Source: Chlamydiota bacterium
GTDB taxonomy: Bacteria; Chlamydiota; Chlamydiia; Chlamydiales; Parachlamydiaceae
Assembly: GCA_013287905.1 (NCBI GenBank)
Contig: JABDCW010000003.1
Coordinates: 8,921 to 72,920 of the forward strand
DNA: 64,000 nucleotides
Direction of reading: 5' to 3'
Below the pieces are notes generated by a model. That model was not told the DNA's origin. It saw only the letters and a program-made list of their open reading frames with translations, and searched no databases. Positions 8,842 through 63,995 of the stretch are shown piece after piece. The position numbers were made by a program, and so were the translations under genes. How positions within the stretch are numbered: position 1 is the stretch's first letter; each line of letters opens with the position of its first letter.

Positions 8842-8924
8842 TAAGGCCCCCTTCCGCTAGTGAAAAGCATACGAATTTACGCAATTAAACACTTGTAATT
8901 CCTCACTTCTAATAGCACCCTATT

Positions 8925-10158: not shown

Positions 10159-10167
10159 TATCGAAAA

Positions 10168-19511: not shown

Positions 19512-19700
19512 CAGGTGCCCGGACATTAAAACAATTTATTGAAACACAGAGATACAGAGGGCACAGAGAATTTCTTTTTTGCCGAAAAGCAAAAAAGAAA
19601 TAGCCTGTTTTTCGCTTCCGCGGAAAAAAAGATGTGCAATAGCTTGTCTCTGTGTTCTCCGTGCCTCTGTGTTTAAAATATTTGTTTTAATGTCCGGTCA
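19512..19700. mobile_element. hairpin element, CACAGAGG-unit family, flanked by a 15-bp direct duplication
   Basis: Termini are ccggacattaaaacaa / ttgttttaatgtccgg. Arms are aaacacagagatacagagggcacagaga / tctctgtgttctccgtgcctctgtgttt. It is the reverse complement of 53498-53656 plus an extra inner hairpin. cccaggagggctata occurs at both 19497-19511 and 19701-19715. Confidence 0.85.
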
Positions 19701-19703
19701 CCC

Positions 19704-35248: not shown

Positions 35249-35563
35249 CTATAGCAAACGCTCTTGCTGGCAGCTTTCCGCCCAATCCCGAAAAATTTGG
35301 AGTACTTCTGGTAAATTGATTGGGCCACATCGTCCTTCAAATTTATTATTTTCAATAAAACAAATAAGCCAGTTGTGATCGGAACACTCTTTTTCAATTT
35401 TTTGAAAATTCAGATCTTGCAATTCAGTATCTTCTAAATTAATACTAATGGACCAACCAGGATTATCCATTGAATCTACATGTATACCTTGTCCATGCTC
35501 CCAATCACCATTACAATGATCATAATACCATTTTAGCAACCATAAAAAAACATTTTCATTCAT
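35249..35563 (-). CDS. Imm53-like immunity protein (copy 2)
   Basis: MNENVFLWLLKWYYDHCNGDWEHGQGIHVDSMDNPGWSISINLEDTEL...IFRDWAE parallels copy 1. I prefer the ATG at 35563 over 35596. Confidence 0.75.
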   Translation of the reverse strand: MNENVFLWLLKWYYDHCNGDWEHGQGIHVDSMDNPGWSISINLEDTELQDLNFQKIEKECSDHNWLICFIENNKFEGRCGPINLPEVLQIFRDWAESCQQERLL

Positions 35564-35577
35564 AGATAGTATTCCAA

Positions 35578-35870
35578 TTAATCTGGTATTTCCCATAATT
35601 GAGGAGGTCTAATGCCACCTTTGAGGATGTTCACGTGGTAGCATCGTTATATATCAGGCCTTCAGCCTGAAGGCCTGAGTTATAGTGAATAGACCTGGTG
35701 AACATGTACTAATATATGGTTGTTGACGTAAGGGAGTTTTGCTTTGGGTTTAAAGGCTTCTAAATGAACATGGGGTCTCCAAGAATCATATTTGCCAAGC
35801 AACGAATTTCTCTAATGATCATGACATTCATACCATCAACGTGATTGTCTCCGGTTTCATGTTAGAAGGC
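35578..35870 (-). pseudogene. decayed orphan toxin tip (same family as 36190-36729)
   Basis: The end reads HVNILKGGIRPPQLWEIPD*, compared with MHDPLCAGGIRPPQLWEIPR*. Upstream, HLEAFKPKAKLP compares with HYETFKPQSNFK. The fragment is interrupted by stops, frameshifts and a small hairpin (caggccttcagcctgaaggcctg). Confidence 0.6.
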
Positions 35871-35874
35871 TTGC

Positions 35875-36186
35875 TTATGGCAAACGGTCTTTTTGGCATC
35901 TTTCCGCCCAGTCTCTAAAAATTTGCAGAACTTTATCAAGATTACAGCAACCACATGATGCTTCAAATGCATTGTTCCTCAGCAAACAAAAGTACCAATT
36001 CATTTCATCAATTTCAAATTGAACAGAAGAAAAAGGGACCCCCTCGCATTCGGTTCCTTGTAAATTTATTACTACATACCAACCAGGATTATCTACTGTC
36101 TCAATTTTAATACCATATTCATGTTCCCAATCTCCATCACATTGTGACTTATACCATTTCTGTAACCACTCAAAATTATTTTCCAT
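35875..36186 (-). CDS. Imm53-like immunity protein (copy 1)
   Basis: MENNFEWLQKWYKSQCDGDWEHEYGIKIETVDNPGWYVVINLQGTE...IFRDWAE is the Imm53 pattern as I recall it. It starts 3 nt after the orphan toxin stop. Confidence 0.8.
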   Translation of the reverse strand: MENNFEWLQKWYKSQCDGDWEHEYGIKIETVDNPGWYVVINLQGTECEGVPFSSVQFEIDEMNWYFCLLRNNAFEASCGCCNLDKVLQIFRDWAERCQKDRLP

Positions 36187-36189
36187 TTT

Positions 36190-36729
36190 TTACCTTGGTA
36201 TTTCCCATAATTGAGGGGGTCTGATCCCTCCAGCACATAGAGGATCATGCATATGGGGTGTTTTTATTTCCTTTTGAAGAATTTTATTAGTATGCCCTTT
36301 ACCATTTCCATCGTATCTTTTTACACTTTCCCAAGGATTTGGATTCTTAAAATTGCTTTGAGGTTTAAAAGTTTCATAATGGCTAATTTTACCAGTTATA
36401 GAATCACGTCTGAATACTGAATGGGCTCCCATTGCATTTGCATCTGCAACAAATCTGTTACGTCCAATTTTTTGAGCAACTTCCGTTATCCCCTTCCCCA
36501 CATCAAATGCTACTGCTTCTCCCCCTCTTAAAGCAGAAGTTCCCTTTGAGAAGCATGAAGCAAGTACAGCAAAGTCAAAAAAAGCTTCTCCATAAACTGT
36601 GCATCGCTCACTAAATGGTACAATTGAATCGAGATAATATGCCTTCATGCATCCAGGCGCAAAAGCACATCCTAGACTCTCGATGGGAGCTTCTCTGAAC
36701 CTTTGGGACAATTCACCCCATTCATTCAC
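36190..36729 (-). CDS. orphan RHS C-terminal toxin module (no N-terminal RHS body)
   Basis: Residues 2-80 are homologous to RHS residues just upstream of its variable tip (NEWGELSQRFREAP.ESLGCAFAPGCMKAYYLDS...RGGEAVAFDVG.G). A different ~100-aa tip follows. It begins with a GTG 2 nt after the preceding immunity stop and has no RBS. Confidence 0.75.
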   Translation of the reverse strand: MNEWGELSQRFREAPIESLGCAFAPGCMKAYYLDSIVPFSERCTVYGEAFFDFAVLASCFSKGTSALRGGEAVAFDVGKGITEVAQKIGRNRFVADANAMGAHSVFRRDSITGKISHYETFKPQSNFKNPNPWESVKRYDGNGKGHTNKILQKEIKTPHMHDPLCAGGIRPPQLWEIPR

Positions 36730-36731
36730 AC

Positions 36732-37199
36732 TTATATAAAATAAATTTTTGATATAATAAACGATGTAATTATTTGATTTTTTATACCAACAATTAAATC
36801 ATTAGAAATTTGAAAAAAGAGAGAATTAGAATCATCATCAGTTAATTTTATTTTTAGGATTCCTTCATTTGAATATTCATAAATTGGTATAAACCTAAAT
36901 GAATATCGATCGGTATTTTCATACCCCTCAAGAATTTTTAATAAACCAACTCTGCAAATTTCTGGAAGTTTTATTTTATCTACATATACCCAGTTTTTTT
37001 TATTTGTAAAAGCATCTAGTGAAATAAATTTTTTATTCAAAGAATTAAAGGTAATCGTTAATGTGTCATATATTAATAAAAATTGATCAAATATTTTATA
37101 GGAATTTGTTTCATATTCAAGTGAATATTCATTTTGATAATAAAATCCTTTTCCCGATTCCTCGTACTCATTTTCAAAAACACCTAATTTTAATTCCAT
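36732..37199 (-). CDS. putative cognate immunity protein of the RHS toxin tip
   Basis: 155-aa ORF starting 10 nt after the RHS stop. It is very AT-rich compared with its neighbours. No family recognised. The call rests on position. Confidence 0.65.
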   Translation of the reverse strand: MELKLGVFENEYEESGKGFYYQNEYSLEYETNSYKIFDQFLLIYDTLTITFNSLNKKFISLDAFTNKKNWVYVDKIKLPEICRVGLLKILEGYENTDRYSFRFIPIYEYSNEGILKIKLTDDDSNSLFFQISNDLIVGIKNQIITSFIISKIYFI

Positions 37200-37209
37200 A
37201 TTTAACAGC

Positions 37210-40200
37210 TCACTCGTAATGAAAATGAAATATTTTCTTGTCTACTTCACTATAAATAATATTCAGTTCATATTCTTTGTTGTTTTTGAATATGTTGCGA
37301 ATAATTTTAGTTGTGTTTGCAGTCATTTGGGGATCTGGTATTTTAGTACCACTATTAATTGCTTCAGCAAGAATATGACGTGGTACATATCGATTGGGAT
37401 TAGACATATGTTTCATTGTTGCGTGGGTGAAGTTTAATTCCTTGGCTAAGTTTACACTGGCCTCAACTTCCCCTATAAGTTTCACACCCCCCCTCCCCAC
37501 ATCAAAAGCTACCGCTTCTCCCCCTCTTAAAGCAGCAGTTCCCTTTAAGACGGATGAGACAAGTACAGCAACGTCAAAACAGGCATCACCATAGGCTGAA
37601 CAATGGTCAGCAAGTGAGGCATTTGAATCGAGATAATATGCCTTCATGCATCCGGGCGCAAAAGCACACCCTAGGCTTTCCATGGGAGCTTCTCGGAACC
37701 TTTGTGACAATTCACCCCATTCATTCCAGGTATTGTGCATTTTATTGTTGAGAGCGGAAGAGTCACCATAGTATTCATATTCAAAATCGGCGTTCAGCCA
37801 ATGACCCATATTGCTGGCGGAATGGAAAGCGCCTGCACCGAAGTTGTATGCCCCAGCTCCAAATCCTCTACAAAAGTTTAGACCTCCCTCCCATAGACTT
37901 TCCCCCCAAAGGCCATAAGCATCGATCCGGTTTAGAGGATTATTACATAAATAGGCATAGAGATTTAGACCATCTATAAACTCGGCAGGATCAGGAGAGG
38001 TCCAGCGGGCAATCTGGGGATCATAGTAGCGCCTTCCAAAATAAATTAGCCCTGTCTCAGGATCAAAACGTTTACTTGCAAAGCGCCAGGGGTTGAGATC
38101 TCTATTTTCGTTTAGTTCACTGCCAAACGAAGAATAGTGATACACTTTTGAGGGTTTACCGTCAGATGTCAGAAGCATTGAGACATTGCCGAAGATGTCA
38201 TGAAGGGGAATGAAGAACTCCTGGTCAAGTTTGATGGCTATGGCAGATCCATGTTCAGAACCATCCATGCTTAAAATGCGAAGTTCTTGCATCTTCCCAT
38301 TTCTGAACATCCCAATTTCATTTTGTCCATCATAGAGATAGCTCTCTTCGCCCTTTGAAAGGCGGCGATCAAATGGGTCGTAAACGTAATGAACCGATTG
38401 ATCAGGAGTTACGACAGAAATCATCCGGTTGAGGGCATCATAAGAATAATGGGTGATCTTTCCGTACTCATTTTTTTGAATGCGATTCCCATTGCAATCG
38501 TACGTGTATTTAATGTTATCCTGCTCCAGAAGCTGGTTTAAAGAATCTATTGCACAAGGGAGTTGATCTTTGGCAATTCGGTTGTGAAGGGAATCATAAG
38601 CAAAATCATGACTCTCTGCCCCTTCTTCAGATGTAAGCCGATAAAGATCATCGTAATGAAACTTTCTGGGAATAGTACCTGAAGAATCTTCCATTTGATC
38701 GGAAAGAACATTTCCCGCTTTATCAAAGCTTTGGATCGAATGCCGCAAAGCCGCATGGTTTAAGCTAAGCCGTCTTTGATTGCAATCATAGAGATAGCTT
38801 ATTGTGCCTGCTTGTTTTGGCAGAGTGCTTTTTAGGAGATTTCCCGATTCATCATAGGCATCAAATGTATGTGTCATTTCATTGCATGTGACCGACTTGA
38901 GGTGGCAGGCGTCATATGCAAAATGAACTTCCACATTTTCAGGAAGGATCATTTGCGTCTTTCTGTCCAGACAATCATAGGAATAGCCGATGTGTAGACC
39001 ATTTCCCAAAATTTCTTTTTCGAGCCGCCCTTCGGGGGTAAAGATCCGATAGGTTGTTTGGCTATTCACCGCATCTTCCACTGCAGTGACCTGGTCGTTC
39101 CGGTTATAGGTGTAACGATAAGAAATAGTACCGTCAGATGCAGATAGTGCGGAAAGCCTCCCTTTCGCATCATAGGCATGTAACAAAACAGTCCCATCCG
39201 GCTTTATGTAAGAAGCTTTTTGGCCGGATTGATTATATGAGTGGGTGGTTGTTCGCTTGTGTGGAGTATCGGGATTCTCGGTTTGCATGATCATTTGATG
39301 CATGGAATTATAGATCCATTCACAGACATATTGCGAGCGATAAACACCATCGATCAAATTCTCTTCTTCAATGCGCAGCAAGTCTCCTTCGAGATTGTAC
39401 AAGTATTTTTTCTGTGAGAGAGGCAGCCCATACGCATTTACTTTTTGCCTTTCGATTGTCCTTCCAAGGGGATCTTTTATCTCAATCGTTACATTTCCCA
39501 TTGGATCCATTGTATGAATCTTGGTGCCGACAAGTCCACCATCTAAGGGATAACGATAGTCGTACAGGTACTCCGTGACATTTCCTTCGGGGTCGATCTC
39601 TTTGAGAATTTCCTGACGGCTGCTATAGAAAGACTGGGAAAGGGACTTTCCCGTTTTCGTTTGAGTTTTCTGTCCAAATGAATTGTATTCGTATTCCGTC
39701 TGAAGGTAGATTCTGCCTTCCAGATCTTTAGTAACTTCTGAAAGAATTTGCCCTATTAAGTCGTAGGTATACTCCTTTATCCTTGCTTCTTGATCTGAAA
39801 TCCAAGAGATTTCCTGAAAAATGTTTCCAAGGGAATCGTATATGTATGTTGTCTTTGATTTTCCCGCTGTTTTTTCAATCAGGCGGGCGGCTCCATCGTA
39901 TTTGTAGATGGTCAACATCCCTTCCCCATCCTCTTCGGAAGTCAATAGGCCGCCCTTATAGGCCCTTTTACTTTGGCTTAAAAGCTGTCCTTCAGGACTA
40001 TAGAGTTCCTCCGAAACGATCTGATTTTGGCAGTCTCTTAGGTAAAGAGTATAGCTTTGATTTTTATGGACAGTTTTATATAGAGCCCCATTCAGGTAAT
40101 ATTCAAATTGCTCTTTTGTTCCATCCGGATAATTTATATGAAGAGTGTCGCCATTACTATTGTACTGTGTGTGCGTTGTAAATCCAAGTCTATCCTTATG

Positions 40201-42441
40201 CAAGATTTGATGACCTAACGTGTCGTAGAAAAATGACTCTATTGGCTGAACAACAGTGCCATTACTAACTACCGCAGGATAAGTGATGGATTGGAGCTTA
40301 TTCTCATCGTTATAAGAAAAATAGGTGGTATGCCCCTGATGGCCCGTTGTAGATATTCTATTTCCGACAAGATCATAGCAATGCCGGGTTTCAAAAGATC
40401 GCCCATCCTTGTGCCGCTCTTCTACCCGTATTAACCGGTTCATCAGGTCGTAATCATAGTGTGTAGCAAACCCGTGCGAGCCATTTTCTTCGAAGATCAG
40501 ATTATCGTTTTTATCGTAACTTCTTCGAATTTCCTCTTTAAGGGCATTGATCTCTTTAACGACATTTCCATGAGGGTCATATTCCCAATAGAGAGTATAT
40601 TGAAGGACATTTACAGCATCAAAGACTTCCTGCTGAATCAGTTTTCCATCAATGGCATAGCTATTGACAGTCCGCTTTAACTGTCTTTCCTCATTTGTCT
40701 TAAGATCTAAGAATGTCTCGGTGACTTGTTGAGGCAAACCAAAAGGGGCGCAAGCGGTGGGGAGAAAATGGGTGATTTTTCTGAAAGTGATTCCTGAAAT
40801 ATCTTCCTTATTGCTTGTAGAACCATCATCGACTATTTTTTTAGTAAGAAACAAATTCTCATCATAGTCGTTAAATTCCCTGAGTAAAATTTGGGTTTCA
40901 CTATTGACGACAAGCTTTGAAGTGACTGCGCTGCTGTTGGGGTAGTAACTATAGAGAATTCCTTTTCCATTACTTTCCCGGTCAGTGAGCACATCATTCC
41001 CGTCGCTGTAGGAAAAATGATGATCATAACAATCAGCGCCATTTGGGACGGGTTTAGAATTCCCATCCAGAATAATTTGTGGCGAATTTTTTCCTGTGAT
41101 ATTTCCGTAACTGCTCGACCTTGTTACATTGCCCCTGTCATCGTAGTCAAATACTTGCCCTTTCAAAATATTGGCATAGGGATCTCTTACATATTTGGCA
41201 AAGAGATTGCCATCCGATTCATAATAAAATGAATCCCTTGAAATTTCTTGGGCAAAGCTATTATAGCGAAGAACATGGATTAATCGTTCATCCTGGTCGT
41301 AAATGTAGGTCATCTTCTGATTGTAGGGATCGATAACATCTGTAGAACCAAATAGCAGTTTCCCTTGAGATTTATTGAAGCGATAAGAAAAACGATGCGT
41401 GGCAAGATATTCCCCATTTTTCCCAATAGGAGCTTGAATTTCTTTTACGCGATCAACCAAGTCCCCTCCCTTTTCATAATAGATAAATTTTAAACCTCTA
41501 CCTTCGGGGAGGGTTTTTTCATTGATGATTAAATGATGATCATACCGGCAGGATTTTGTGTAGGAGTATTTAACAGTTGGCTTTTCCGGATTTTCAATAG
41601 AATTTAAATACAAAGTTTCCCAGATTATCCCATTCTTATTTCGCTTTTTCTTTTCGAAATGATAGGTGACTTTTTTTCCTGTTGAGGAGTCAACAACGAG
41701 TTCCCTACCATGTTTAGGATAGGTAAAATTAAGTTTACCATAGACAAGAGTATCTGCCCGGTTCCCTTGGCGAATTTCTGCTATATCGAGATCTCGATTA
41801 TAGCGAAAATGTTTTTTTGTTCTGTCTGAATTGGTTTCTTCATAGAGAGCGAAGGATACCCAGCTACCCTCTCTTTGGCCCTGTAGAAAAAGTTGCGCGG
41901 TACCATCCCCAGAAATAAGCTCTCCTGAACATCTATATTTTTTGTCTCTATTATTGAAAGAAAGAATGTTGTTTTTGATATTTGTTTTGCCACTTATCTT
42001 TTTTGATCCACAGTTTGTGTACCCTTTAGTAGGAGTAAATGTAAAAGCTATTTTTCCTTTCGGTTTGTGTTTCAAACTGACTTCAAATTTCGCTCTTGCC
42101 CCATGCGGCGATGTTACAAGCGCTGTGCCTGTGCCTTTGGGGTCTGGCTGGTAATAAAAGATTGGGGTCGGTTCAATAAAATGCCAACTTCTGTATAGAT
42201 CGGCACCCGAGGTATCCCCACTGCAATATGTACGTTGGAGCATAAAAGGACGAGGGCCTGGAAGAACCAAATCCTGCTCGTGGATCACAAGCTCGCCGGT
42301 AATTGCAGACACATGGCCGGCGACAATTGAGCTCGACAACCCTTCTGTAGAGGCAAGGGAGTCTGTAGTCAGAGAATCAAATTCAGCTCCGGAAATCGTG
42401 GCAAATAGAAAAAGCAGCACACATAGTAATATTTTTTTCAT
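37210..42441 (-). CDS. RHS / YD-repeat polymorphic toxin with Sec signal peptide
   Basis: I prefer the ATG at 42441 (MKKILLCVLLFLFATISGAEF). There are dozens of YD repeats (Y.YD..G....). The core ends with RYYDPQIARWTSPDP...NPLNRIDAYGLW (W codon 37906-37908). A 231-aa C-terminal extension follows. Confidence 0.9.
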   Translation of the reverse strand: MKKILLCVLLFLFATISGAEFDSLTTDSLASTEGLSSSIVAGHVSAITGELVIHEQDLVLPGPRPFMLQRTYCSGDTSGADLYRSWHFIEPTPIFYYQPDPKGTGTALVTSPHGARAKFEVSLKHKPKGKIAFTFTPTKGYTNCGSKKISGKTNIKNNILSFNNRDKKYRCSGELISGDGTAQLFLQGQREGSWVSFALYEETNSDRTKKHFRYNRDLDIAEIRQGNRADTLVYGKLNFTYPKHGRELVVDSSTGKKVTYHFEKKKRNKNGIIWETLYLNSIENPEKPTVKYSYTKSCRYDHHLIINEKTLPEGRGLKFIYYEKGGDLVDRVKEIQAPIGKNGEYLATHRFSYRFNKSQGKLLFGSTDVIDPYNQKMTYIYDQDERLIHVLRYNSFAQEISRDSFYYESDGNLFAKYVRDPYANILKGQVFDYDDRGNVTRSSSYGNITGKNSPQIILDGNSKPVPNGADCYDHHFSYSDGNDVLTDRESNGKGILYSYYPNSSAVTSKLVVNSETQILLREFNDYDENLFLTKKIVDDGSTSNKEDISGITFRKITHFLPTACAPFGLPQQVTETFLDLKTNEERQLKRTVNSYAIDGKLIQQEVFDAVNVLQYTLYWEYDPHGNVVKEINALKEEIRRSYDKNDNLIFEENGSHGFATHYDYDLMNRLIRVEERHKDGRSFETRHCYDLVGNRISTTGHQGHTTYFSYNDENKLQSITYPAVVSNGTVVQPIESFFYDTLGHQILHKDRLGFTTHTQYNSNGDTLHINYPDGTKEQFEYYLNGALYKTVHKNQSYTLYLRDCQNQIVSEELYSPEGQLLSQSKRAYKGGLLTSEEDGEGMLTIYKYDGAARLIEKTAGKSKTTYIYDSLGNIFQEISWISDQEARIKEYTYDLIGQILSEVTKDLEGRIYLQTEYEYNSFGQKTQTKTGKSLSQSFYSSRQEILKEIDPEGNVTEYLYDYRYPLDGGLVGTKIHTMDPMGNVTIEIKDPLGRTIERQKVNAYGLPLSQKKYLYNLEGDLLRIEEENLIDGVYRSQYVCEWIYNSMHQMIMQTENPDTPHKRTTTHSYNQSGQKASYIKPDGTVLLHAYDAKGRLSALSASDGTISYRYTYNRNDQVTAVEDAVNSQTTYRIFTPEGRLEKEILGNGLHIGYSYDCLDRKTQMILPENVEVHFAYDACHLKSVTCNEMTHTFDAYDESGNLLKSTLPKQAGTISYLYDCNQRRLSLNHAALRHSIQSFDKAGNVLSDQMEDSSGTIPRKFHYDDLYRLTSEEGAESHDFAYDSLHNRIAKDQLPCAIDSLNQLLEQDNIKYTYDCNGNRIQKNEYGKITHYSYDALNRMISVVTPDQSVHYVYDPFDRRLSKGEESYLYDGQNEIGMFRNGKMQELRILSMDGSEHGSAIAIKLDQEFFIPLHDIFGNVSMLLTSDGKPSKVYHYSSFGSELNENRDLNPWRFASKRFDPETGLIYFGRRYYDPQIARWTSPDPAEFIDGLNLYAYLCNNPLNRIDAYGLWGESLWEGGLNFCRGFGAGAYNFGAGAFHSASNMGHWLNADFEYEYYGDSSALNNKMHNTWNEWGELSQRFREAPMESLGCAFAPGCMKAYYLDSNASLADHCSAYGDACFDVAVLVSSVLKGTAALRGGEAVAFDVGRGGVKLIGEVEASVNLAKELNFTHATMKHMSNPNRYVPRHILAEAINSGTKIPDPQMTANTTKIIRNIFKNNKEYELNIIYSEVDKKIFHFHYE

Positions 42442-42532
42442 ATCAGGAATTTCTTTGGATGAGTTGTGAATGAGATTATATATTGGCCAATAATAGTTCA
42501 AGAAAAAATTAGAACGTGCAGCAATTCTAATC

Positions 42533-43786
42533 TCAACCGTTATTAGACTTTTGAAGATCCTCATGCTCAAATGCAGAGGACATCCGATCGATTTCTGCTT
42601 TTTTTATTTTAAATTTCGCAGCCTCCTTTCGCCACAAAGCCGTAGCCCCACTCACTTCTCTCAAGATTTTTCTTGCCTCTGTGGAGTCGATATCAAAATA
42701 ATGGGCCACACTCAATGCTAAATCAATGGATGCACTGGGGTCTGTCAGATCGATGGCTGTGGAGAGGATTCTTGGTTTGATATCTGTTGGCACAGGATTC
42801 AAATCATAAGCGGGCGATATGCGCCAACCTTGCAAGCCTGAATAAAGAAATGCGTGATTACGCAAGTGGTCATCTACGTTAGATACCAAAACATTAAAAA
42901 CAATCCGGCGCCAAAGGGATGCTAAATCTTCTTTAGGGGAAGCACTCATTTGACGTATGGCATCTGCTATTTCAAGATAACTATGCATTTCATTATCTCT
43001 CGCAGAAAGAGCGCTCATAGCAGACAGGAATGGAATACGAAAGTAACCTTTTCGATCAAACCGCCTGGATATAAGAATTTGCTTGTGACCGATAGATTCG
43101 AGACGCCATTGAGGGACATCAATTCCTGCTTTGCCGGCTAGAGTAAGAGTAACCGCTTCCCATGCAATGATATTTATTTCATCGCTATCGCTTGGAAATT
43201 TAGCAATGCTTAAGTGCCCATCTTTATCCCTTACAGAAGCCTTGGGTCTGGCTCCGCCTAAAGATGATCCGGGAGCCAGCAATAATCGAAGGTCTTCTTC
43301 AGTATCCGAATCCTGCAAAACGTGAGTTGCTGCTGTAAGAAGTTTACCAACTGAAACTAAAGGGGGAATATGATTCTTATGATAAGTCGTTAGAAAAGGA
43401 CCCTGCTCACTCTCTTTAAAGCGGATGGCTCCTTGTCTGCCTTCGTCATCAACCATTAATAAGAAATCGATTTCTTTTAAAGCGCGCGGGGTTCTTTTCT
43501 CTTTTTCAGCATCTTTTCTCTCAGAACGCCGCATGAGCAGGCGTCCCCAACGATCAGGAGCAGAATCATCAATGGCTCCAAAAATCGGCTTATCAGCTGA
43601 TGCATGAAAAGAGCCGCCAGCTAATTTTAAAGCCGGGTCCAGTGAAAATCGGTTTGTATGCTGCAGCCACTCCCTGTCATATTCAAAGGACATACTTTCT
43701 CGTCCATTGCGAAAACGTCCCCAAAGCTGACCTACTTTTAGCGGGACTCCTAAGAGATCCACGTAGACAAGGATAGCCTGTTCCAT
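42533..43786 (-). CDS. hipA: HipA-family serine/threonine kinase toxin
   Basis: The N-terminal coupling domain has GQLWGRF...FEYDREW. DSAPDRWGR, the HipA_C region with GGARPK, and DDHLRNHAF (catalytic loop) are present. The ATG at 43786 lies 1 nt after the hipB stop. Confidence 0.85.
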   Translation of the reverse strand: MEQAILVYVDLLGVPLKVGQLWGRFRNGRESMSFEYDREWLQHTNRFSLDPALKLAGGSFHASADKPIFGAIDDSAPDRWGRLLMRRSERKDAEKEKRTPRALKEIDFLLMVDDEGRQGAIRFKESEQGPFLTTYHKNHIPPLVSVGKLLTAATHVLQDSDTEEDLRLLLAPGSSLGGARPKASVRDKDGHLSIAKFPSDSDEINIIAWEAVTLTLAGKAGIDVPQWRLESIGHKQILISRRFDRKGYFRIPFLSAMSALSARDNEMHSYLEIADAIRQMSASPKEDLASLWRRIVFNVLVSNVDDHLRNHAFLYSGLQGWRISPAYDLNPVPTDIKPRILSTAIDLTDPSASIDLALSVAHYFDIDSTEARKILREVSGATALWRKEAAKFKIKKAEIDRMSSAFEHEDLQKSNNG

Positions 43787-43787
43787 C

Positions 43788-44120
43788 TTAAGTACCACTA
43801 CTGTCTTTTTTGGAAATTCGGATCCGTTTCGGCAAATTTTCCTCTTCCAATTCCAGACCTAATTGATCTGATGCAGAGTCGACTAATTCAGCTAGTCGTC
43901 CGACCATGCCTAAAACAAATAAAACCCGGGCATATGCCCCCAATGAGACCCCCTCTTCCCCCCTTTCAATTTTGCTTAAAGTAGCGCGGGTAATAGACGC
44001 TCGTTCCGCAGCAAGTTGCATGGGGATTCGGCGTCTTTTTCTGGCATTGCAAAGATCCTGACCGAGCTTTTTCAAAGCTCGTTTGACAGGAATGGGTGTA
44101 TTTTTAATGTTCATATTCAT
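43788..44120 (-). CDS. hipB: HipB-like XRE-family HTH antitoxin
   Basis: The HTH region is LCNARKRRRIPMQLAAERASITRATLSKIERGEEGVSLGAYARVL. It lies immediately upstream of hipA. I prefer an ATG at 44120 or 44114 over the TTG at 44132. Confidence 0.8.
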   Translation of the reverse strand: MNMNIKNTPIPVKRALKKLGQDLCNARKRRRIPMQLAAERASITRATLSKIERGEEGVSLGAYARVLFVLGMVGRLAELVDSASDQLGLELEEENLPKRIRISKKDSSGT

Positions 44121-44151
44121 ATACCATACCAACTTTATTGTATAGAATTGG

Positions 44152-44281
44152 ATACATTAAGTCAATTTATCAGGAATAATAATCGAGCTCTTCATTTTTT
44201 TTGGTCCTATTACTCTCCAATTGAAGATCCTAATGTTCAAATGCAGAGGAGATCCGATCGATTTCGGCTTTTTTTATTTTA
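44152..44281. other. rearrangement scar: copy of the 3' end of gene 45058-45849 fused to a copy of the hipA 3' end
   Basis: 44152-44219 aligns to 45040-45111 as a direct repeat. 44221-44281 aligns to 42551-42611 (encodes KIKKAEIDRISSAFEH* versus KIKKAEIDRMSSAFEHED). Confidence 0.85.
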
Positions 44282-45039: not shown

Positions 45040-45111
45040 ATACATCAAGTCTATTTATCAGGAATAATAATAATCGAGCTCCTCATTTTTTTTGGGTCCT
45101 ATGACTCTCCA
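45040..45111. repeat. direct-repeat partner of 44152-44219
   Basis: atacatcaagtctatttatcaggaataataataatcgagctcctcattttttttgggtcctatgactctcca. It overlaps the 3' end of the 45058-45849 gene. Confidence 0.85.
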
Positions 45112-45849
45112 GCATAAATGCAAGCCATTCGAATCATAATAAATTTGACCGAAATAAGAGTCTTCTTCACAAAGGTGAGAATCTACAGAAGAGAGGCACT
45201 GCTTGCCCGATGGGGTAAGATAGAAAAGAAATACAGGCCTGTCAGCCCCATGACGCAAATGTTCCAGGGAAATAACCCCTTTACTGCGATCTAATGTCCA
45301 TCGGAAAGTGTTGCTAAAGCTCACTTCCGTGCCTTGTTTGTCCTGCCAGCTTCCTTTTTCATGAAAGACCAGTATGTCAGGGCCTTGCCTGGTCAGGATA
45401 ACTTCTCCATACCCCTTTCCATTCCACCCCTGCTCATTTTTTGATTTGGTTTTTGCATGGAAAACCAATTTAGTCACCTTCTTAAGCTTTTCCCAAAGGG
45501 TAAGCAGTGTGTGGTTTTTATTGTAATTGATTGCGGCTTGAGCTAAATCCTCTTTTATGAGGTAACACTGTTTTTTTTCATGAGCCGCTAACAAGGTATA
45601 TGCCTTTTTTAGCAACTGCTCCAGTTCACTTAAAAGAGGATAAGAAGGATTAAACTGATAAAGCCTTGTCTTCCCCTCATAATAACTTGTAATCACTCCA
45701 CCTTTTTCTAATCGATCTAACGCCTTCTGGATAGGCGTAAGAGAAGTTTTGAAAGAGCGATGAAGCTGAGTTCCATAACATTTGCCGTTGACAAACAAAA
45801 AGATCAGAATTTTTGTGACATTTTTATTTCCACATATGACATCAAGCAT
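45058..45849 (-). CDS. winged-helix (MarR/ArsR-like) DNA-binding domain fused to an uncharacterised C-terminal domain
   Basis: The N-terminus ILIFLFVNGKCYGTQLHRSFKTSLTPIQKALDRLEKGGVITSYYEGKTRLYQFN looks like a wHTH. The C-terminal ~150 aa resembles DUF6314-type domains (weak). It is divergent from bioB. Confidence 0.65.
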   Translation of the reverse strand: MLDVICGNKNVTKILIFLFVNGKCYGTQLHRSFKTSLTPIQKALDRLEKGGVITSYYEGKTRLYQFNPSYPLLSELEQLLKKAYTLLAAHEKKQCYLIKEDLAQAAINYNKNHTLLTLWEKLKKVTKLVFHAKTKSKNEQGWNGKGYGEVILTRQGPDILVFHEKGSWQDKQGTEVSFSNTFRWTLDRSKGVISLEHLRHGADRPVFLFYLTPSGKQCLSSVDSHLCEEDSYFGQIYYDSNGLHLCWRVIGPKKNEELDYYYS

Positions 45850-46012
45850 AAAAAAACCAACCTTCGTTTAAAACATTATAAACTCTTTTCTAGTTTTTAA
45901 AAAAATGGAAGATCCAGAGGAAAATATCGAAATTTGCATTCAAATTAAATCTCATATCGGTTTATGTAAACCAGTTTCTAGTTTTTGAAATATCCAAAAC
46001 AATGGTTTTCCA

Positions 46013-46041
46013 TTGAAAATCCGGTTAAACCATCGATAATA
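46013..46041 (+). promoter_or_regulatory. candidate bio operon promoter with near-palindrome in the spacer
   Basis: TTGAAA (46013-46018), a 16-17 nt spacer, then gATAATa (46035-46041), ~30 nt upstream of the bioB ATG. GGTTaAACC (46023-46031) lies in the spacer. GGTTTAtgTAAACC lies at 45959-45972. Confidence 0.3.
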
Positions 46042-46071
46042 TTCATTTCAAAGCAAGAAAGGAAGTAAATA

Positions 46072-47040
46072 ATGTTGAAATATGATTGGACAATCACAGA
46101 ATTAGAAGAACTTTATCAATTGCCGTTCCTCGACTTGATTGCTAAATCCCACACCATTCATGCCCAATTTCATGAGGTGTCAGAAATTCAGGTGTGCAAT
46201 CTCATCTCAATTAAGACAGGGGGCTGTCCGGAAGATTGCCGGTATTGTGCACAATCATCCCGTTATCAGACCCCGGTTCAAGCAACAGCCATGATGGAAT
46301 ACGAAGCGGTTTTAAGCGAAGCGAAGAAAGCAATAAGCCGGGGGGCTACTCGTATTTGTTTAGGGGCAGCCTGGAGAGCCCCGCGCAACAACAAAGCATT
46401 TGACGAAATTATAAAGATGGTCAAAGGGATTACTGAGCTTGGAGTAGAGGTGTGCTGCACGCTTGGAATGATCGATGAAACCCAAGGAAAACGCCTAAAG
46501 GAAGCCGGCCTTTATGCCTATAACCATAATCTCGATACTTCTGAAAAATTCTATCCCCAAATTACTTCAACAAGAAGCTACCAGGATAGACTAAAAACTT
46601 TAGATGCCGTAGAGAATGCAAATTTAAGCGTATGCTGCGGCGGAATTTTAGGCATGGGCGAATCAGTACAGGACAGGCTGGAACTATTACTTACCCTATG
46701 CAAAAGAAATCCCCATCCGGAATCAGTGCCGATTAACCGCTTAAGTACAATTCCAGGCACGCCTCTTGAAAATCTTCCCCAGATTTCTATATGGGAGATG
46801 GTTCGCATCGTTGCCATTGCCAGGATCGTCATGCCAAAAGCCATGGTGCGCTTGTCCTGCGGCCGAATTGACATGACCTATGAAGCGCAAGCCCTTTGTT
46901 TTTTAGCCGGAGCCAACTCTATTTTTTCCGGAGAAAAGCTGCTCACTGTAGCCAATACATCGATCGATAGTGACAGAAAGATGTTTGAACTTTTAGGACT
47001 CAAAATGCGTCCCGCTTTTGCTAAGGCTGGTGCCTCATGA
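46072..47040 (+). CDS. bioB: biotin synthase
   Basis: The radical-SAM motif is CPEDCRYCAQS. YNHNLDTS and a GESVQDR-type region are present. Confidence 0.95.
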   Translation: MLKYDWTITELEELYQLPFLDLIAKSHTIHAQFHEVSEIQVCNLISIKTGGCPEDCRYCAQSSRYQTPVQATAMMEYEAVLSEAKKAISRGATRICLGAAWRAPRNNKAFDEIIKMVKGITELGVEVCCTLGMIDETQGKRLKEAGLYAYNHNLDTSEKFYPQITSTRSYQDRLKTLDAVENANLSVCCGGILGMGESVQDRLELLLTLCKRNPHPESVPINRLSTIPGTPLENLPQISIWEMVRIVAIARIVMPKAMVRLSCGRIDMTYEAQALCFLAGANSIFSGEKLLTVANTSIDSDRKMFELLGLKMRPAFAKAGAS

Positions 47041-48140
47041 CATTATCTCTGGAAAACCAGCTGCTTTTAAGAAAAAAGCAAAATAATTTCCGGCAATTGA
47101 CACCCGTTTTACCTTTGATCGATTTTTCTTCAAACGATTACTTAGGACTCGCCAGATCCTCTGATCTAATGGATTCAATTATTTTAGAACAGCATAGGCT
47201 GCCAAATGATCTAAAGGGGTTTGGGTCGACAGGATCCCGCCTCCTCTCGGGCAATTCACAATACGCTCAAGACTTGGAAAACACAATTGCCGCATTCCAT
47301 GCCTTTGATTCCGGCGTTATCTTTAATTGCGGTTATATGGCGAATGTAGGGCTTCTCTCTACTGTTGCAAGGCAAATTGACACCATTTTTTTTGATTCCA
47401 GGGTCCATGCTTCCACCCGGGACGGGATTCGCTTGAGCAGGGCGCAATCTTACCCATTCAAGCACAATAATTTGGCCCATCTCGAACAGCGTCTTAAAAA
47501 TGGGTCCGCAAAAGGAAATCGTTTTATCTGCATTGAATCGATTTACTCTACAAGCGGAAAAAGGGCCCCGCTCGTTGACATCTCCACACTTGCAAAAAGA
47601 TATGATGCTCATTTAATCGTAGATGAAGCTCATGCAGTAGGAGTATACGGCCCAAAAGGACGCGGGCTCGTTGCTGAGGCCGACCTGCACTCTAGCACCT
47701 TTGCCCTGATTGTTACCTTTGGCAAGGCTCTTGGTACGCATGGGGCCATTGTCCTGGGAAGAAGGGGATTGATCGACAGCCTCATCAATTTTGCTACCCC
47801 CTTCATTTATACAACTGCGTTACCTTTTTTTTCCTTCGCTGCCATTAAATGCAGCTATGACTATTTTCCGAAATGCGAACCAGAAAGATCCCGTCTGCAT
47901 CGATTGATTGATCAATGCAACAAGATATATGCAGAATCATCAGGCACACAAATCCAGTCAATAAAGATGAATGGAAATAAGGAAGCCAGGTATATGGCCC
48001 AAAAGCTTGCAAAGACGGGATTCGATGTCAAACCTCTATTAAGCCCGACAGTGCAAAGAGGGCACGAAATCTTGCGCATCTGCCTGCACTCTTTTAATAC
48101 AAAAAACGAACTGCAGACCTTAATGGAGATCGTTTCGTGA
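47037..48140 (+). CDS. bioF: 8-amino-7-oxononanoate synthase
   Basis: DEAHAVGVYGPKGRG and the PLP-Lys context TFGKALG. An ATGA overlap links it to bioB. Confidence 0.9.
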   Translation: MTLSLENQLLLRKKQNNFRQLTPVLPLIDFSSNDYLGLARSSDLMDSIILEQHRLPNDLKGFGSTGSRLLSGNSQYAQDLENTIAAFHAFDSGVIFNCGYMANVGLLSTVARQIDTIFFDSRVHASTRDGIRLSRAQSYPFKHNNLAHLEQRLKNGSAKGNRFICIESIYSTSGKRAPLVDISTLAKRYDAHLIVDEAHAVGVYGPKGRGLVAEADLHSSTFALIVTFGKALGTHGAIVLGRRGLIDSLINFATPFIYTTALPFFSFAAIKCSYDYFPKCEPERSRLHRLIDQCNKIYAESSGTQIQSIKMNGNKEARYMAQKLAKTGFDVKPLLSPTVQRGHEILRICLHSFNTKNELQTLMEIVS

Positions 48141-48763
48141 AAAACATCATCGTTGCAGGAATAGGCACTGAAGTGGGAAAAACAATTGCTGCAGCCATTT
48201 TGACCACTCTTTTAAATGGCGATTACTGGAAACCTGTTCAATGCGGTGTGGACGGTAATTGCGATTCGGCTATCATGAAAAAGTTGCTGTGTGCAAAAAA
48301 ACATCGCGTTCATCCGCCCGCCTATTCTTTAAAAATGGATGCCTCTCCTCACCATGCAGCCAGGATGGAAAATATTTGCATCGATCTGCAAGCAATTATC
48401 CCTCCTGAAACGACATCACCCCTGATCATCGAAAGCGTAGGGGGGGTCTATGTCCCCATTCTAACTGAAAGTTTGAGCATCGACCTGTTTAAGACATGGA
48501 AATGCCAGTGGATCGTCGTTTCAAAACACTATCTGGGAAGCATCAACCATACATTATTGACTCTCGATGCCCTAAAACGGCATCATATCCCAGTTTCCGG
48601 CATCATCTTCAATGGCGAGCCCAATATCGACAGTGAAACCGCAATTTTAAGGAACTCCCGGGTTCCATTTTTTAATAGGCTGCTTCCAGAAACTTCGATA
48701 AACAGACAAACAATTCAAAGGTACGCAAAACAATGGCAATATCAGCTTCCGCTCATCTCTTGA
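48137..48763 (+). CDS. bioD: dethiobiotin synthetase
   Basis: The P-loop is GIGTEVGKT. It overlaps the bioF stop and is 208 aa long. Confidence 0.85.
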   Translation: MKNIIVAGIGTEVGKTIAAAILTTLLNGDYWKPVQCGVDGNCDSAIMKKLLCAKKHRVHPPAYSLKMDASPHHAARMENICIDLQAIIPPETTSPLIIESVGGVYVPILTESLSIDLFKTWKCQWIVVSKHYLGSINHTLLTLDALKRHHIPVSGIIFNGEPNIDSETAILRNSRVPFFNRLLPETSINRQTIQRYAKQWQYQLPLIS

Positions 48764-50025
48764 GCCAGAAAGACCGCGAGTGTGTGTGGCACCCGTTTAC
48801 GCAAATGAAGACGGCACGCTTGCCAATCCCTATTGTCAAAGGTAAAGGACTATATCTTTATGATATAGATGGAAAACCTTATTTGGACGGCATTTCTTCC
48901 TGGTGGGTTAACCTTCATGGACATGCCCATCCCTATATTGTCGAAAAAATCAAATCTCAGGCAGGTCAACTGGAACATGTCATTTTTGCCGATTTTACCC
49001 ATGCCCCTGCTGTGGATTTAGCCTCCGGCCTTCTTTCCATCCTGCCAGGTAATATGTCCAAAATCTTTTATTCAGATAATGGGTCGACAGCCGTTGAAGT
49101 GGCACTCAAAATTGCCTTGCAATTTTGGCATAATCAAAATATTGATCGCACAAAAATCATTTGTTTCAAAAATAGTTATCATGGCGATACCTTTGGAGCC
49201 ATGTCTGCATCGGGAAAAAATGAGCTCAATCGACCCTTTTGGAGCCACTTCTTTGCTGTTGAAACCATCGACCCTCCAATTAAGGGAGATGAATCACAGT
49301 CCATTTATCAGCTTCAAACTATTTTAAGAAAGGAAAAGGTTGCCTGTTTTATCTTTGAACCTCTTGTCCTGGGATCTGGGGGGATGATCATCTACCCGGC
49401 AGATGGATTAAACAAACTCATCCAATGCTGCAGACAGCACGATGTATTAACCATTGCCGATGAGGTGATGACAGGATTTGGACGGACAGGCACTCTTTTT
49501 GCCTGTGATCAGCTTAAGCAAACCCCTGATATGATTTGCCTTTCCAAGGGATTAACAGGCGGCTTTTTGCCATTAGCAGCCACAGCTTGCACAGAGAGAA
49601 TATTTAACGCCTTTCTTGGCAATCATCTCTCTTCTGCCTTCCTGCACGGCCATTCTTATGCTGCCAACCCGATTGCATGCGTAAGCGCCCTTGCAAGCCT
49701 TGATCTTTTACTGAAAGAAAGCTGTTTTCTGCAAAGGAAAATGATTGCTTCATCCCACAAGGCTTTCTGCAAAAAATGGAACGGCCATCCAAAACTCAAG
49801 CGTTGCGAAGCCTTAGGAACGATTTTAGCTTTAGAGTATCAAACGAAAAAAACGACATACTTTCAATCGATCCGCGACAGTCTGTACAAATTTTTCATAG
49901 ATAGAGGCATTATCCTTCGCCCTTTAGGCAATGTCCTATATGTTCTGCCTCCCTATTGCATTAATCGGGATGAATTGGATTTTATTTATGATCACATTAT
50001 TCTTACACTCGAAGGAGATCTATGA
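48733..50025 (+). CDS. bioA: adenosylmethionine-8-amino-7-oxononanoate aminotransferase
   Basis: VWHPFTQMK, SYHGDT, DEVMTGFGRTG and SKGLTGG (the PLP Lys). Confidence 0.9.
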   Translation: MAISASAHLLSQKDRECVWHPFTQMKTARLPIPIVKGKGLYLYDIDGKPYLDGISSWWVNLHGHAHPYIVEKIKSQAGQLEHVIFADFTHAPAVDLASGLLSILPGNMSKIFYSDNGSTAVEVALKIALQFWHNQNIDRTKIICFKNSYHGDTFGAMSASGKNELNRPFWSHFFAVETIDPPIKGDESQSIYQLQTILRKEKVACFIFEPLVLGSGGMIIYPADGLNKLIQCCRQHDVLTIADEVMTGFGRTGTLFACDQLKQTPDMICLSKGLTGGFLPLAATACTERIFNAFLGNHLSSAFLHGHSYAANPIACVSALASLDLLLKESCFLQRKMIASSHKAFCKKWNGHPKLKRCEALGTILALEYQTKKTTYFQSIRDSLYKFFIDRGIILRPLGNVLYVLPPYCINRDELDFIYDHIILTLEGDL

Positions 50026-50666
50026 ATGGATTTATTTCTTTTGCTGAACAGTTGGAACCCTTGCTTGACCATATTGTCAGCTCTCATTTCCTGCATGCCA
50101 GATGGCTAAATACCCTTTCTTATCTTGAAAATTGCGGGGCCAGAAAAATTGCTGCCTGCGAACATCCGACTTTAGTCAAAGAAGAGATGCTCAAGCACGC
50201 AGCTGAAGAATTCCGCCATGCCCATTACCTGAAGAGGCAAATCGAAAAAATCTCCTCCGCCTGTTTAGAAGATTACTCTCTTGGCTCTATGCTGGGAGAA
50301 AGAAGCACATTGCATTATTTGACTGCGCTCGATGTAAAAGCATCCCGTTATCTTAAAAGTAATGGGTTTTCCAAAAACTCTATTAAAGAAGCCGCCTATT
50401 TACTCGTCACTTATGCAATTGAACTGCGGGCCGCACAGCTTTATCCAATTTATGACGCAGTTCTTCGAAATAGTCGTTCCGCTGTTGCTGTCAAGTCGAT
50501 TTTGCTCGAAGAAAAAGAACATCTCGAAGAGATGAAAGAGGGATTGAACAAGCTTTCTTTAGGGGATGTACACGCAGCCCATGTTTGTGCAATAGAAAGC
50601 GATCTATGTAAAAAATGGATCGATGCTGTCGGGAAAACTCTACATATTAAAAAAGCACCCAATTGA
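50022..50666 (+). CDS. ferritin-like di-iron carboxylate protein, fifth gene of the bio operon
   Basis: An ATGA overlap links it to the bioA stop. The ligand pattern is E36 (YLEN), E63xxH66 (AEEFRHA), E134 (AIELRAA) and E164xxH167 (LEEKEHL), as in acyl-ACP desaturase / aldehyde-deformylating oxygenase-type four-helix bundles. Confidence 0.75.
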   Translation: MNGFISFAEQLEPLLDHIVSSHFLHARWLNTLSYLENCGARKIAACEHPTLVKEEMLKHAAEEFRHAHYLKRQIEKISSACLEDYSLGSMLGERSTLHYLTALDVKASRYLKSNGFSKNSIKEAAYLLVTYAIELRAAQLYPIYDAVLRNSRSAVAVKSILLEEKEHLEEMKEGLNKLSLGDVHAAHVCAIESDLCKKWIDAVGKTLHIKKAPN

Positions 50667-50753: not shown

Positions 50754-50913
50754 GGTGAATTTCAGACTTTCCGAGAATTTTAAGTGCAGTATACATTACT
50801 TATATCTATAAATTAAGTAACATATGATTAAAAATCGGGAGAATTTTGGATATTTCTGATTTCCAACTGACATCAACCGTCAAAATAAGAGAAGTTATGA
50901 TATAAGTTGACGA

Positions 50914-51078
50914 TATACCGAAGGTGGTTCAAAAGTTGGGATTTTGACAAGGAGGCTGCTCAAAATTTTTCGTCTGGAGCGAGGGGCCATTGCCAATGGC
51001 CAAGGCACGAGTGAAGACAAAAATTTTGATGCAAAGCCAACGCAGTCAAAAACCAATTTTTGAATCACGTTCGGTATA
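50914..51078. mobile_element. 165-bp MITE-like palindromic element (inverted relative to 8925-9089)
   Basis: tataccgaaggtggttcaaaagttggg...ccaatttttgaatcacgttcggtata. Its reverse complement is about 90% identical by eye to 8925-9089. A TA dinucleotide lies at both junctions. Confidence 0.85.
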
Positions 51079-51104
51079 ATACTATATAAAGGTTAGTAGC
51101 ATAA

Positions 51105-53497: not shown

Positions 53498-53656
53498 CCA
53501 GGTGACTGAGCATTAAAACAAATATTTTAAACACAGAGGCACGGAGAACACAGAGACAAGCTATTACACATCTTTTTTTTCGTGGAAGCAAAAAAAATCT
53601 CTGTGTCCTCTGTGTCTCTGTGTTTCAATAAATCGTTTTAATAAAAAGTCGCCTGG
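53498..53656. repeat. hairpin element, CACAGAGG-unit family
   Basis: ccaggtgactgagcattaaaacaaatattttaaacacagaggcacggagaacacagaga ... tctctgtgtcctctgtgtctctgtgtttcaataaatcgttttaat...gtcgcctgg. It is the reverse complement of 19512-19700 without the inner hairpin. It abuts the wzt stop. Confidence 0.9.
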
Positions 53657-62795: not shown

Positions 62796-63995
62796 TTATT
62801 TCAAATGTTCATTCAGGAACTCAAGGATCACACTTGCCGCTTTCATTTGATTTTGTTTTTTCAAAAATCCGTGTCCCTCATCTTCAAAAACGAGATACTG
62901 ATTAGGAGTTCCATTTTTGTTTACGGCCTCGATAATTTGATCCGACTCAATTTTTACAACTCTTGGGTCATTAGCTCCCTGAATAACTAAGAGAGGTTTT
63001 TTAATGTTTTCGGCATGAAAGAGAGGTGAAATATTATTCAGGTAATCAACCTCCGTTTCTGGGTTGCCCATTTTTTTATAAATGGCTTCTCTACGCGCTT
63101 CCCACCAAGTGGGAATGCCTTTAAGTGTCCGGATCCAATTCGAAATCCCACAAATATCTACTCCAACTGCCATTTCATCCGGTCTAAAGGTTAGAGCAGC
63201 CAAAGCAATATAACCACCATAGCTTCCTCCGATGATACCGATCTTGTTTTGATCAATATTGCCCGTTCCAACGAGGAAATGCTTAGCCCAAATACAGTCA
63301 TCTAAATCGGCTTCTCCATGTTTGTGATCAGCAGATTTAAAAAATGATTTGCCGTACCCTGAACTCCCTCGATGATTTACGCTTAAGATAGAGTATCCAT
63401 GGTTGACCAGATATTGGATCAGATAGCTATATCCGATCCGTGACTGACCACCGGGCCCCCCGTGCACCAATATAAGAGCCGGCCCCTTCTCCTCTGTTTG
63501 CATGTCTTTAGTTTTGTAATATAATGCAGGGATCAAAGTGCCATCGTAGGACTGATAACGGATGATTTGGGCATCCACAAGATCTTCAGGATCAATTTCA
63601 GGACTTAAGGAGTTGGTCAGTTTATTAACACTTGAGGTTTCAAAATGATAATAATAAAGATTATCAGGAGAACGATATCCATTAACATAAAATAACATTG
63701 ATTTTTCAGATTTAGAAATCCCCACATGGGTGATTTCCCCCTCCGGCATCTTGGGAAGAAACATTTTCTCATTAGTCTCTTGATTGTGAATATAAATAGA
63801 GGTTTTGCCATCTTCATTAACCCCAGTTACGCGATACTTGCCGGTATATGAAAAACTACAAAAAAATATATCCCAAGGGTGCTTTTCTATAATTTCAGTA
63901 ATTTGGGAGTCTATAGCAAAGCGTTTTAGATAAGTGAACTCATTATCCTGATCAGTGAGAAAGTAAAGATAACGGGAGTCTGTACTAAAGTTCAC
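62796..63995 (-). CDS. S9-family serine peptidase (prolyl oligopeptidase / acylaminoacyl-peptidase type), C-terminal part; gene continues past the window end
   Basis: The nucleophile motif is GGSYGGY. HGGPG is present, and DPRV and GHGF carry the Asp and His of the triad. A beta-propeller region lies upstream. The frame is open to the window edge. Confidence 0.85.
   Translation of the reverse strand: MNFSTDSRYLYFLTDQDNEFTYLKRFAIDSQITEIIEKHPWDIFFCSFSYTGKYRVTGVNEDGKTSIYIHNQETNEKMFLPKMPEGEITHVGISKSEKSMLFYVNGYRSPDNLYYYHFETSSVNKLTNSLSPEIDPEDLVDAQIIRYQSYDGTLIPALYYKTKDMQTEEKGPALILVHGGPGGQSRIGYSYLIQYLVNHGYSILSVNHRGSSGYGKSFFKSADHKHGEADLDDCIWAKHFLVGTGNIDQNKIGIIGGSYGGYIALAALTFRPDEMAVGVDICGISNWIRTLKGIPTWWEARREAIYKKMGNPETEVDYLNNISPLFHAENIKKPLLVIQGANDPRVVKIESDQIIEAVNKNGTPNQYLVFEDEGHGFLKKQNQMKAASVILEFLNEHLK

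Follow-up and report, generated by a model that had tools for sequence, protein, structure and literature searches.

A probable BioE-type diiron oxygenase gene closing the biotin operon of an environmental chlamydia, and a candidate DUF6314 regulator upstream of it

The 214-amino acid (aa) product of the last gene in a biotin operon of an environmental chlamydia is very probably BioE, which acts early in the 'fourth' pathway to the pimeloyl moiety. The operon lies in a stretch of 64,000 nucleotides of contig JABDCW010000003.1 (assembly GCA_013287905.1, Parachlamydiaceae; contig positions 8,921 to 72,920), here called the window, where the open reading frame (ORF) in question follows bioB, bioF, bioD and bioA. 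Judged by its sequence, ligand set, channel residues and synteny, the protein is clearly a BioE ortholog. A preliminary description of this DNA had proposed the gene as a candidate source of the pimelate moiety, its product being a di-iron oxygenase that would cleave long acyl chains much as BioI does, and this proposal is supported by the function shown for BioE orthologs (PMC12704756, PMC12915131). The earlier hypothesis is thus right in substance. Its remark that the operon holds no known pimeloyl-synthesis gene is outdated, as the 214-aa gene now counts as one; the family was published late in 2025, and the window gene is a further member of it from an environmental chlamydia.

BioE was described in December 2025 as a ferritin-like non-heme diiron oxygenase (PMC12704756, PMC12915131), and has been shown in Elizabethkingia and Chryseobacterium (PMC12704756) and in Chlamydia psittaci (PMC12915131). 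The enzyme binds about two Fe per monomer, requires O2 and a reductant (phenazine methosulfate (PMS)/NADH in vitro) and cuts between C7 and C8 in C14, C16 and C18, not C12, chains carried either by coenzyme A (CoA) or by an acyl carrier protein (ACP) (PMC12704756). Pimeloyl-CoA/ACP and a C(n-7) acid were identified as the products by mass spectrometry, and BioE orthologs rescue E. coli bioH/bioC mutants (PMC12704756, PMC12915131). The iron ligands of the E. meningoseptica enzyme, EmBioE, are E26, E53, H56, E125, E155 and H158, and each Ala substitution kills its function (PMC12704756); those of the C. psittaci enzyme, CpBioE, are E41, E68, H71, E140, E170 and H173, and its acyl channel is lined by eleven residues, W33, L37, L40, I48, L105, V135, I139, L146, Y147, Y150 and L205 (PMC12915131). 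EmBioE is a dimer that accepts acyl-CoA too (PMC12704756), whereas CpBioE is a monomer that uses acyl-ACP only (PMC12915131).

The ligands that the preliminary description had read from the 214-aa ORF (E36 / E63-x-x-H66 / E134 / E164-x-x-H167) are all present, and so are the two strings quoted with them, LLVTYAIELRAAQLYPIY and ILLEEKEHLEE. In a set of 76 family representatives (27-50% identity) neither H66 nor E164 varies, and the conservation of E36, E63, E134 and H167 is 90% or higher, indicating that the ligand motif is a signature of the family and not a chance occurrence. Relatives of the protein numbered 1071 among 90%-identity clusters, and at E ≤ 1e-3 it matched the representatives of 551 clusters formed at 50% identity (385 at ≤ 1e-10). 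Searches with the ORF gave only sub-threshold matches in Pfam, to COQ7 (17.4 bits, cutoff 23.5) and Rubrerythrin (13.9), and zero matches in NCBIfam, and the family was therefore assigned via homologs and the literature.

Identity to the characterised enzymes was measured on proxies, namely the proteins of Chlamydia crocodili, Chryseobacterium and Chitinophaga. The C. crocodili protein (219 aa) has 17/17 of the residues named for CpBioE at the published numbers and is thus a faithful proxy for it, and in the Chitinophaga protein (locus L042) the ligand numbers are exactly those of EmBioE. By the published criterion, a family member shares >40% of its residues with EmBioE at a coverage of >85%; the window protein was 47% identical to the C. 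crocodili ortholog over 213 aligned residues, 48-50% identical to two Chryseobacterium homologs and 53% identical to that of Chitinophaga. All six iron ligands of EmBioE and CpBioE are kept, with E36, E63, H66, E134, E164 and H167 aligning column for column and with the same spacing as in CpBioE (27, 3, 68/69, 30, 3). Additionally, 10/11 channel residues are identical to those of CpBioE (W28, L32, L35, I43, L100, V129, I133, L140, Y141 and Y144). By analogy with these orthologs, the window protein would be expected to have the same activity, and it may prefer ACP over CoA.

An AlphaFold2 (AF2) model of the protein, based on the 76-sequence alignment, was all-helical with seven helices (predicted local distance difference test (pLDDT) 95.4, predicted template modelling score (pTM) 0.91), and the ligands are predicted to fall on helices 22-45, 54-77, 118-150 and 158-177. 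The model thus supports a ferritin-like fold class; a BioE structure has not been deposited in the PDB. Cyanobacterial aldehyde-deformylating oxygenase (cADO), MiaE, COQ7 and acyl-ACP desaturase share with BioE the E/ExxH/E/ExxH set on a four-helix core, and cADO and other ferritin-like diiron oxygenases also share a hydrophobic acyl channel and the dependence on O2 and a reductant. However, the chemistry of BioE, a C7-C8 cleavage to two carboxylates, is unlike that of the cADO group. In Pfam the ORF matched neither the aldehyde-deformylating oxygenase nor the acyl-ACP desaturase family at E≤1. The likeness to these two groups in the preliminary description therefore holds as a remote one, and membership in either family does not. 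The functional analog of BioE is BioI, the Bacillus P450, which cleaves a long acyl-ACP oxidatively at C7-C8 to yield the pimeloyl moiety, but BioI is a heme-thiolate P450 whose fold and cofactor are unrelated to those of BioE.

We scanned one genome per GTDB species with a 21-sequence alignment as the query, which gave 593 relatives, and the loci of the best 80 of these 593 were analysed. They belong to Chlamydiota and Verrucomicrobiota metagenome-assembled genomes (MAGs), C. crocodili, many Chryseobacterium, Chitinophaga, Bergeyella and Paenimyroides, and include taxa in which BioE was defined. The nearest loci, 65-76% identical to the window protein, are from Chlamydiales, Rhabdochlamydiaceae and Parachlamydiaceae MAGs. 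The homolog stands beside bio genes in 78 of the 80 loci, in three gene orders: bioA-bioE in 47 loci, mostly as bioB-F-D-A-E, bioE-F-D-B-A in 21 and bioE-bioB in 10. Linkage to bio genes in other genomes, whose absence had been listed beforehand as a point of refutation, was therefore found almost throughout, the exceptions being L015, which lies at a contig end, and L041, which has no bio linkage. C. crocodili, of the same phylum as the window, also has the order bioB-F-D-A-bioE (L058). The EmBioE and CiBioE genes (E. meningoseptica and Chryseobacterium indologenes), whose products have a ligand set identical to that of the window protein, are linked to bioF as well, but in an order unlike that of the window, bioE-bioF-bioD / bioB-bioA, with a divergent gene for the MocR-type repressor BioL (GntR and aminotransferase domains).

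Two of the related loci showed further features. The Parachlamydiaceae MAG chromosome OY969795.1 carries two bio clusters (L009 and L048), one with a full BioE; the other consists of bioF-D-A and a BioE match to residues 1-133 only, and may be a truncated duplicate. In C. crocodili (L058) a FabI-like enoyl-ACP reductase gene (adh_short_C2, 4890-5738, +) is located immediately 5' of bioB on the same strand, and a fatty-acid-synthesis gene thus adjoins an operon that contains a long-chain acyl-ACP consumer.

The genes of the window operon (46072-50666, +) overlap by 4, 4, 31 and 4 nt from bioB to the fifth ORF. The bioB/bioF junction is an ATGA overlap, and at 50020-50029 (ctATGAatgg) the start codon of the fifth ORF (ATG, 50022-50024) runs into the stop codon of bioA (TGA, 50023-50025). 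The coordinates and the sequence at 50020-50029 thus confirmed the tight overlap of bioBFDA and the fifth gene, with ATGA at the bioA stop, that had been claimed for this operon. BioB, BioD and BioA were identified with NCBIfam equivalog models (Table 1). The window BioF scored well under the curated cutoff of TIGR00858 (302.8 vs 426.45 bits); the position of bioF is conserved in 60+ related loci, and the protein represents a divergent BioF lineage, possibly tied to the use of BioE-derived pimeloyl-ACP. A TTGAAA-like hexamer was seen by eye at an equal relative position in the related intergenic regions upstream, and a terminator scan downstream of bioE gave no convincing candidate. In favour of BioE, Pfam searches that covered every substantial ORF in the window revealed no S-adenosylmethionine (SAM) methyltransferase (BioC), BioW, P450 (BioI) or 3-ketoacyl-ACP synthase III (KAS-III; BioZ), and the sole alpha/beta-hydrolase was an S9 peptidase (62796-63995), which bears out the earlier statement that the window lacks bioC/bioH, bioW, bioI and bioZ equivalents, but this absence is only weakly informative as it concerns 64 kb and not a whole genome.

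The most probable sequence of events is the following. BioE would be co-translated with BioB, BioF, BioD and BioA and would form a ferritin-like helical bundle, with two iron atoms bound by E36, E63/H66, E134 and E164/H167. A C14-C18 fatty acyl thioester, in a chlamydia most likely an acyl-ACP from type II fatty-acid synthesis, would enter the hydrophobic channel with its omega end first, and its C7-C8 bond would be cut oxidatively with O2 and an external reductant, in a multistep reaction of 10 electrons overall. The products would be pimeloyl-ACP and a C(n-7) fatty acid. BioF would then condense pimeloyl-ACP with alanine to 8-amino-7-oxononanoate (KAPA), and BioA, BioD and BioB would finish biotin.

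Several observations weigh against the assignment to BioE. The family has no model in either Pfam or NCBIfam, and no gene for a reductase partner was found near bioE. The sole clear exception among the 80 loci, L041 of a Chlamydiia MAG, encodes a full-length BioE homolog (9977-10630, 58% identity, all motifs) with zero bio genes within 10 kb and with membrane and acyltransferase-like ORFs as its neighbours. The Foldseek comparison of the model with the PDB gave ferritin-like matches only, all of them weak (best E 0.25, template modelling (TM) score ≤0.52). cADO, which has been named as the closest solved structure to BioE (PMC12704756), was not the top match; it ranked 22 and 41 with TM scores of 0.41-0.47, about as high as YciF, AetD, MiaE and Dps-like proteins, and the published statement was thus not clearly reproduced with Foldseek. 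The best sequence match in the PDB was TM1526, a generic ferritin-like diiron-carboxylate protein (E=0.007), with cADO at E=0.016. Finally, the channel residue L205 of CpBioE is replaced by W199, the state of the Bacteroidota homologs, and the carrier surface of CpBioE is only partly kept, as read by eye from the alignment (K46/K47 = R41/K42, the latter corresponding to R31/K32 of EmBioE; F39 = Y34; K102 = L97; Y103 = H98), and carrier preference and oligomeric state may thus differ from those of CpBioE.

Such differences at the carrier contacts, which are unlike both characterised enzymes, and the change of L205 to W199 would also suit a BioE-family oxygenase with another specificity in this lineage, be it in chain length, in the use of acyl-CoA or free fatty acid or in the position of cleavage, with a product that is not the direct substrate of BioF. 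The sub-cutoff BioF of the window and the divergence of EmBioE and CpBioE themselves in carrier specificity and oligomeric state point in the same direction. However, the channel is nearly that of CpBioE, and the strict translational coupling of bioA and bioE, with the operon kept in 47 loci, argues that the product feeds BioF, and we regard a changed specificity as very improbable. Another explanation would make the protein a ferritin-like helper in the late pathway, such as one that donates iron to the sacrificial Fe-S cluster of BioB or repairs it, instead of a source of pimelate. The gene is co-transcribed with bioB, the Chitinophaga homolog is directly beside bioB alone, and the top PDB sequence match is the generic protein TM1526. 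Yet E. coli mutants with a block ahead of pimeloyl-ACP are rescued by the orthologs, which also form pimeloyl-ACP/CoA in vitro, the acyl-channel residues needed for pimeloyl formation are conserved in the window protein, and in Chryseobacterium bioE heads a bioE-bioF-bioD unit. We therefore consider such an accessory role very improbable and reject it on account of the ortholog biochemistry. Hardly credible is a third reading, in which the organism imports biotin and the ORF is a remnant that is decaying or no longer functions: many chlamydiae do rely on BioY/SMVT uptake, and one relative (L048) has a truncated second copy, but the ORF is intact and of full length with all catalytic residues and a Shine-Dalgarno sequence, the other four operon genes are intact too, and the protein shares its 65-76% identity with many relatives over its full length.

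Upstream of bioB the window carries a divergent gene for a 263-aa protein in which a winged helix-turn-helix (wHTH) is joined to a DUF6314 domain. We found 1101 relatives of this wHTH-DUF6314 protein, all uncharacterised, and no mention of DUF6314 in a literature search. Its gene is placed likewise, divergent and upstream of bioB, in 29 related loci. In Chryseobacterium (L072) and Chitinophaga (L042) this position is taken by the MocR-type BioL, and in C. crocodili by the FabI-like short-chain dehydrogenase/reductase (SDR) on the bioB strand, whereas the window has the divergent wHTH-DUF6314 gene and paired palindromes. According to Pfam the divergent gene of the window has no aminotransferase domain and is thus not a MocR of the BioL type, and the window locus is in this respect like Chlamydia, from which BioL is absent (PMC12915131). 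In an AF2 model of the 263-aa protein (pLDDT 74), Foldseek related the N-terminal part to ArsR/SmtB-type repressors, SqrR and HlyU (TM about 0.7, root-mean-square deviation 2.2 Å), and the C-terminal part to the fatty-acid-binding protein (FABP)-like beta-barrels of nitrobindin and Rv2717c/Rv0813 (TM 0.5-0.55), suggesting an ArsR-like winged helix and a calycin/nitrobindin-like barrel.

The 222-nt region between this gene and bioB (45850-46071) contains two copies of AAAC(T/C)N-N5-TAGTTT, which are the only matches to the palindrome with at most one mismatch in the 64 kb (0.16 expected). In 30 such intergenic regions 50 sites were found, compared to 1.6 in shuffles, which makes them about 140-fold denser than elsewhere in those loci. 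A region usually holds a pair of sites, most commonly spaced by 86-90 bp, and at ≤1 mismatch nearly all sites across the related loci sit between the regulator gene and bioB. Four loci without an adjacent regulator still carry sites upstream of bioB, and the C. crocodili and Bacteroidota loci have none. In L033 a one-mismatch palindrome, AACCTAATTTTTAGTTT, was seen at about 3463, some 1.6 kb past the regulator gene and outside the bio intergenic region; it may be an additional target or a chance occurrence. The consensus of the BirA operator is TGTAAACC-N15-GGTTTACA. A BirA operator, for which TGTAAACC at 45966-45973 was considered, was rejected, as the conserved unit is AAACTA-N5-TAGTTT, which co-varies with the wHTH-DUF6314 gene.

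Gene and sites together are the classical signature of a putative dedicated transcription factor with its operators, and since site 1 lies 31-47 nt from the start codon of the regulator, autoregulation is suggested. On balance we lean towards an undescribed one-component wHTH-DUF6314 regulator that controls the BioE-containing operon of environmental chlamydiae and some Verrucomicrobiota via paired AAACTA-N5-TAGTTT sites about 88 bp apart. It would take the place held by the MocR-type BioL in Bacteroidota and by BirA/BioR/BioQ elsewhere, and its barrel would sense biotin, a pathway intermediate or a fatty-acyl intermediate.

Table 1. Features of the biotin operon and of the region upstream of it. 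Positions are those of the window; a dot stands for no strand.
Feature	Position	Strand	Basis or remark
Candidate operon regulator, 263 aa, ArsR-like winged helix + DUF6314 beta-barrel	45058..45849	-	PF19834, 35.2 bits
Operator-like palindrome 1, AAACTCttttcTAGTTT	45880..45896	.	31-47 nt upstream of the regulator start codon
Operator-like palindrome 2, AAACCAgtttcTAGTTT	45968..45984	.	88 nt from palindrome 1; 29 nt upstream of the -35-like TTGAAA
Sigma-70-like promoter candidate for bioB, TTGAAA-16-GATAAT	46013..46040	+	Consensus match only
bioB, biotin synthase, at the head of the operon	46072..47040	+	TIGR00433, 378.5 bits vs cutoff 225; Radical_SAM + BATS domains (Pfam)
bioF, 8-amino-7-oxononanoate synthase, consumer of the pimeloyl thioester	47037..48140	+	TIGR00858 is the best NCBIfam match; Aminotran_1_2
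bioD, dethiobiotin synthase	48137..48763	+	TIGR00347, 98.5 bits vs cutoff 83.3
bioA, adenosylmethionine-8-amino-7-oxononanoate (KAPA) aminotransferase	48733..50025	+	TIGR00508, 526.4 bits vs cutoff 405
Shine-Dalgarno-like AAGGAG within the bioA 3' end	50012..50017	+	4 nt ahead of the bioE ATG; read from the sequence
Probable bioE ortholog, 214 aa, ferritin-like diiron oxygenase	50022..50666	+	Homologs, ligands, AF2 model, synteny

Other features were observed elsewhere in the window. A tandem duplication of about 2 kb (2803-4598 vs 4760-6585) carries two peptide deformylase genes that are 95% identical (4021-4598 vs 6008-6585), along with a pair of related small ORFs and two Acido-Lenti-1 RNA motifs (RF01687; 2842-2887 at 40.1 bits and 4798-4843 at 42.2 bits). 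An Rhs toxin/immunity array (35249-42570, -) contains an RHS-repeat polymorphic toxin of 1786 aa, two Imm53 immunity genes, a 155-aa ORF after the toxin with no family match (36732-37199) and an orphan toxin C-terminal cassette (36190-36729), the 5' part of which is 85% identical to 37489-37726. A HipA-like kinase gene (HipA_C, 160 bits) and an overlapping XRE-type HTH gene form a HipBA-type toxin-antitoxin pair (42533-44132, -). Dispersed intergenic repeats of 70-170 nt with 82-93% identity occur as the pairs 8924-9094 / 50909-51079, 19608-19702 / 53501-53595, 8394-8513 / 57304-57422, 17632-17752 / 29319-29441 and 44152-44219 / 45040-45111. One copy, internally palindromic and resembling a miniature inverted-repeat transposable element (MITE), lies between bioE and the next gene, and one pair flanks an HlyIII gene just upstream of the regulator.

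Where chlamydiae get the pimeloyl starter had been a puzzle since at least 2012, when Fisher et al. reported chlamydial genomes without a pimeloyl pathway and without a known biotin regulator (PMC3459881); the answer came with the description of BioE in December 2025. Our analysis indicates that environmental chlamydiae use BioE in the same operon position, and the related loci extend to MAGs labelled Verrucomicrobiota; both lineages are absent from the discussion in the BioE papers. In practical terms, this helps annotation and broadens the set of sequences by which the BioE family can be defined. The candidate wHTH-DUF6314 regulator and its conserved operator pair are the only potentially new biology here. 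As overexpression of BioE is toxic in Elizabethkingia, it would be instructive if another lineage had a dedicated regulator that is non-homologous; if true, the wHTH-DUF6314 protein would add a fifth type to the biotin regulators, in a phylum that has been reported to have none.

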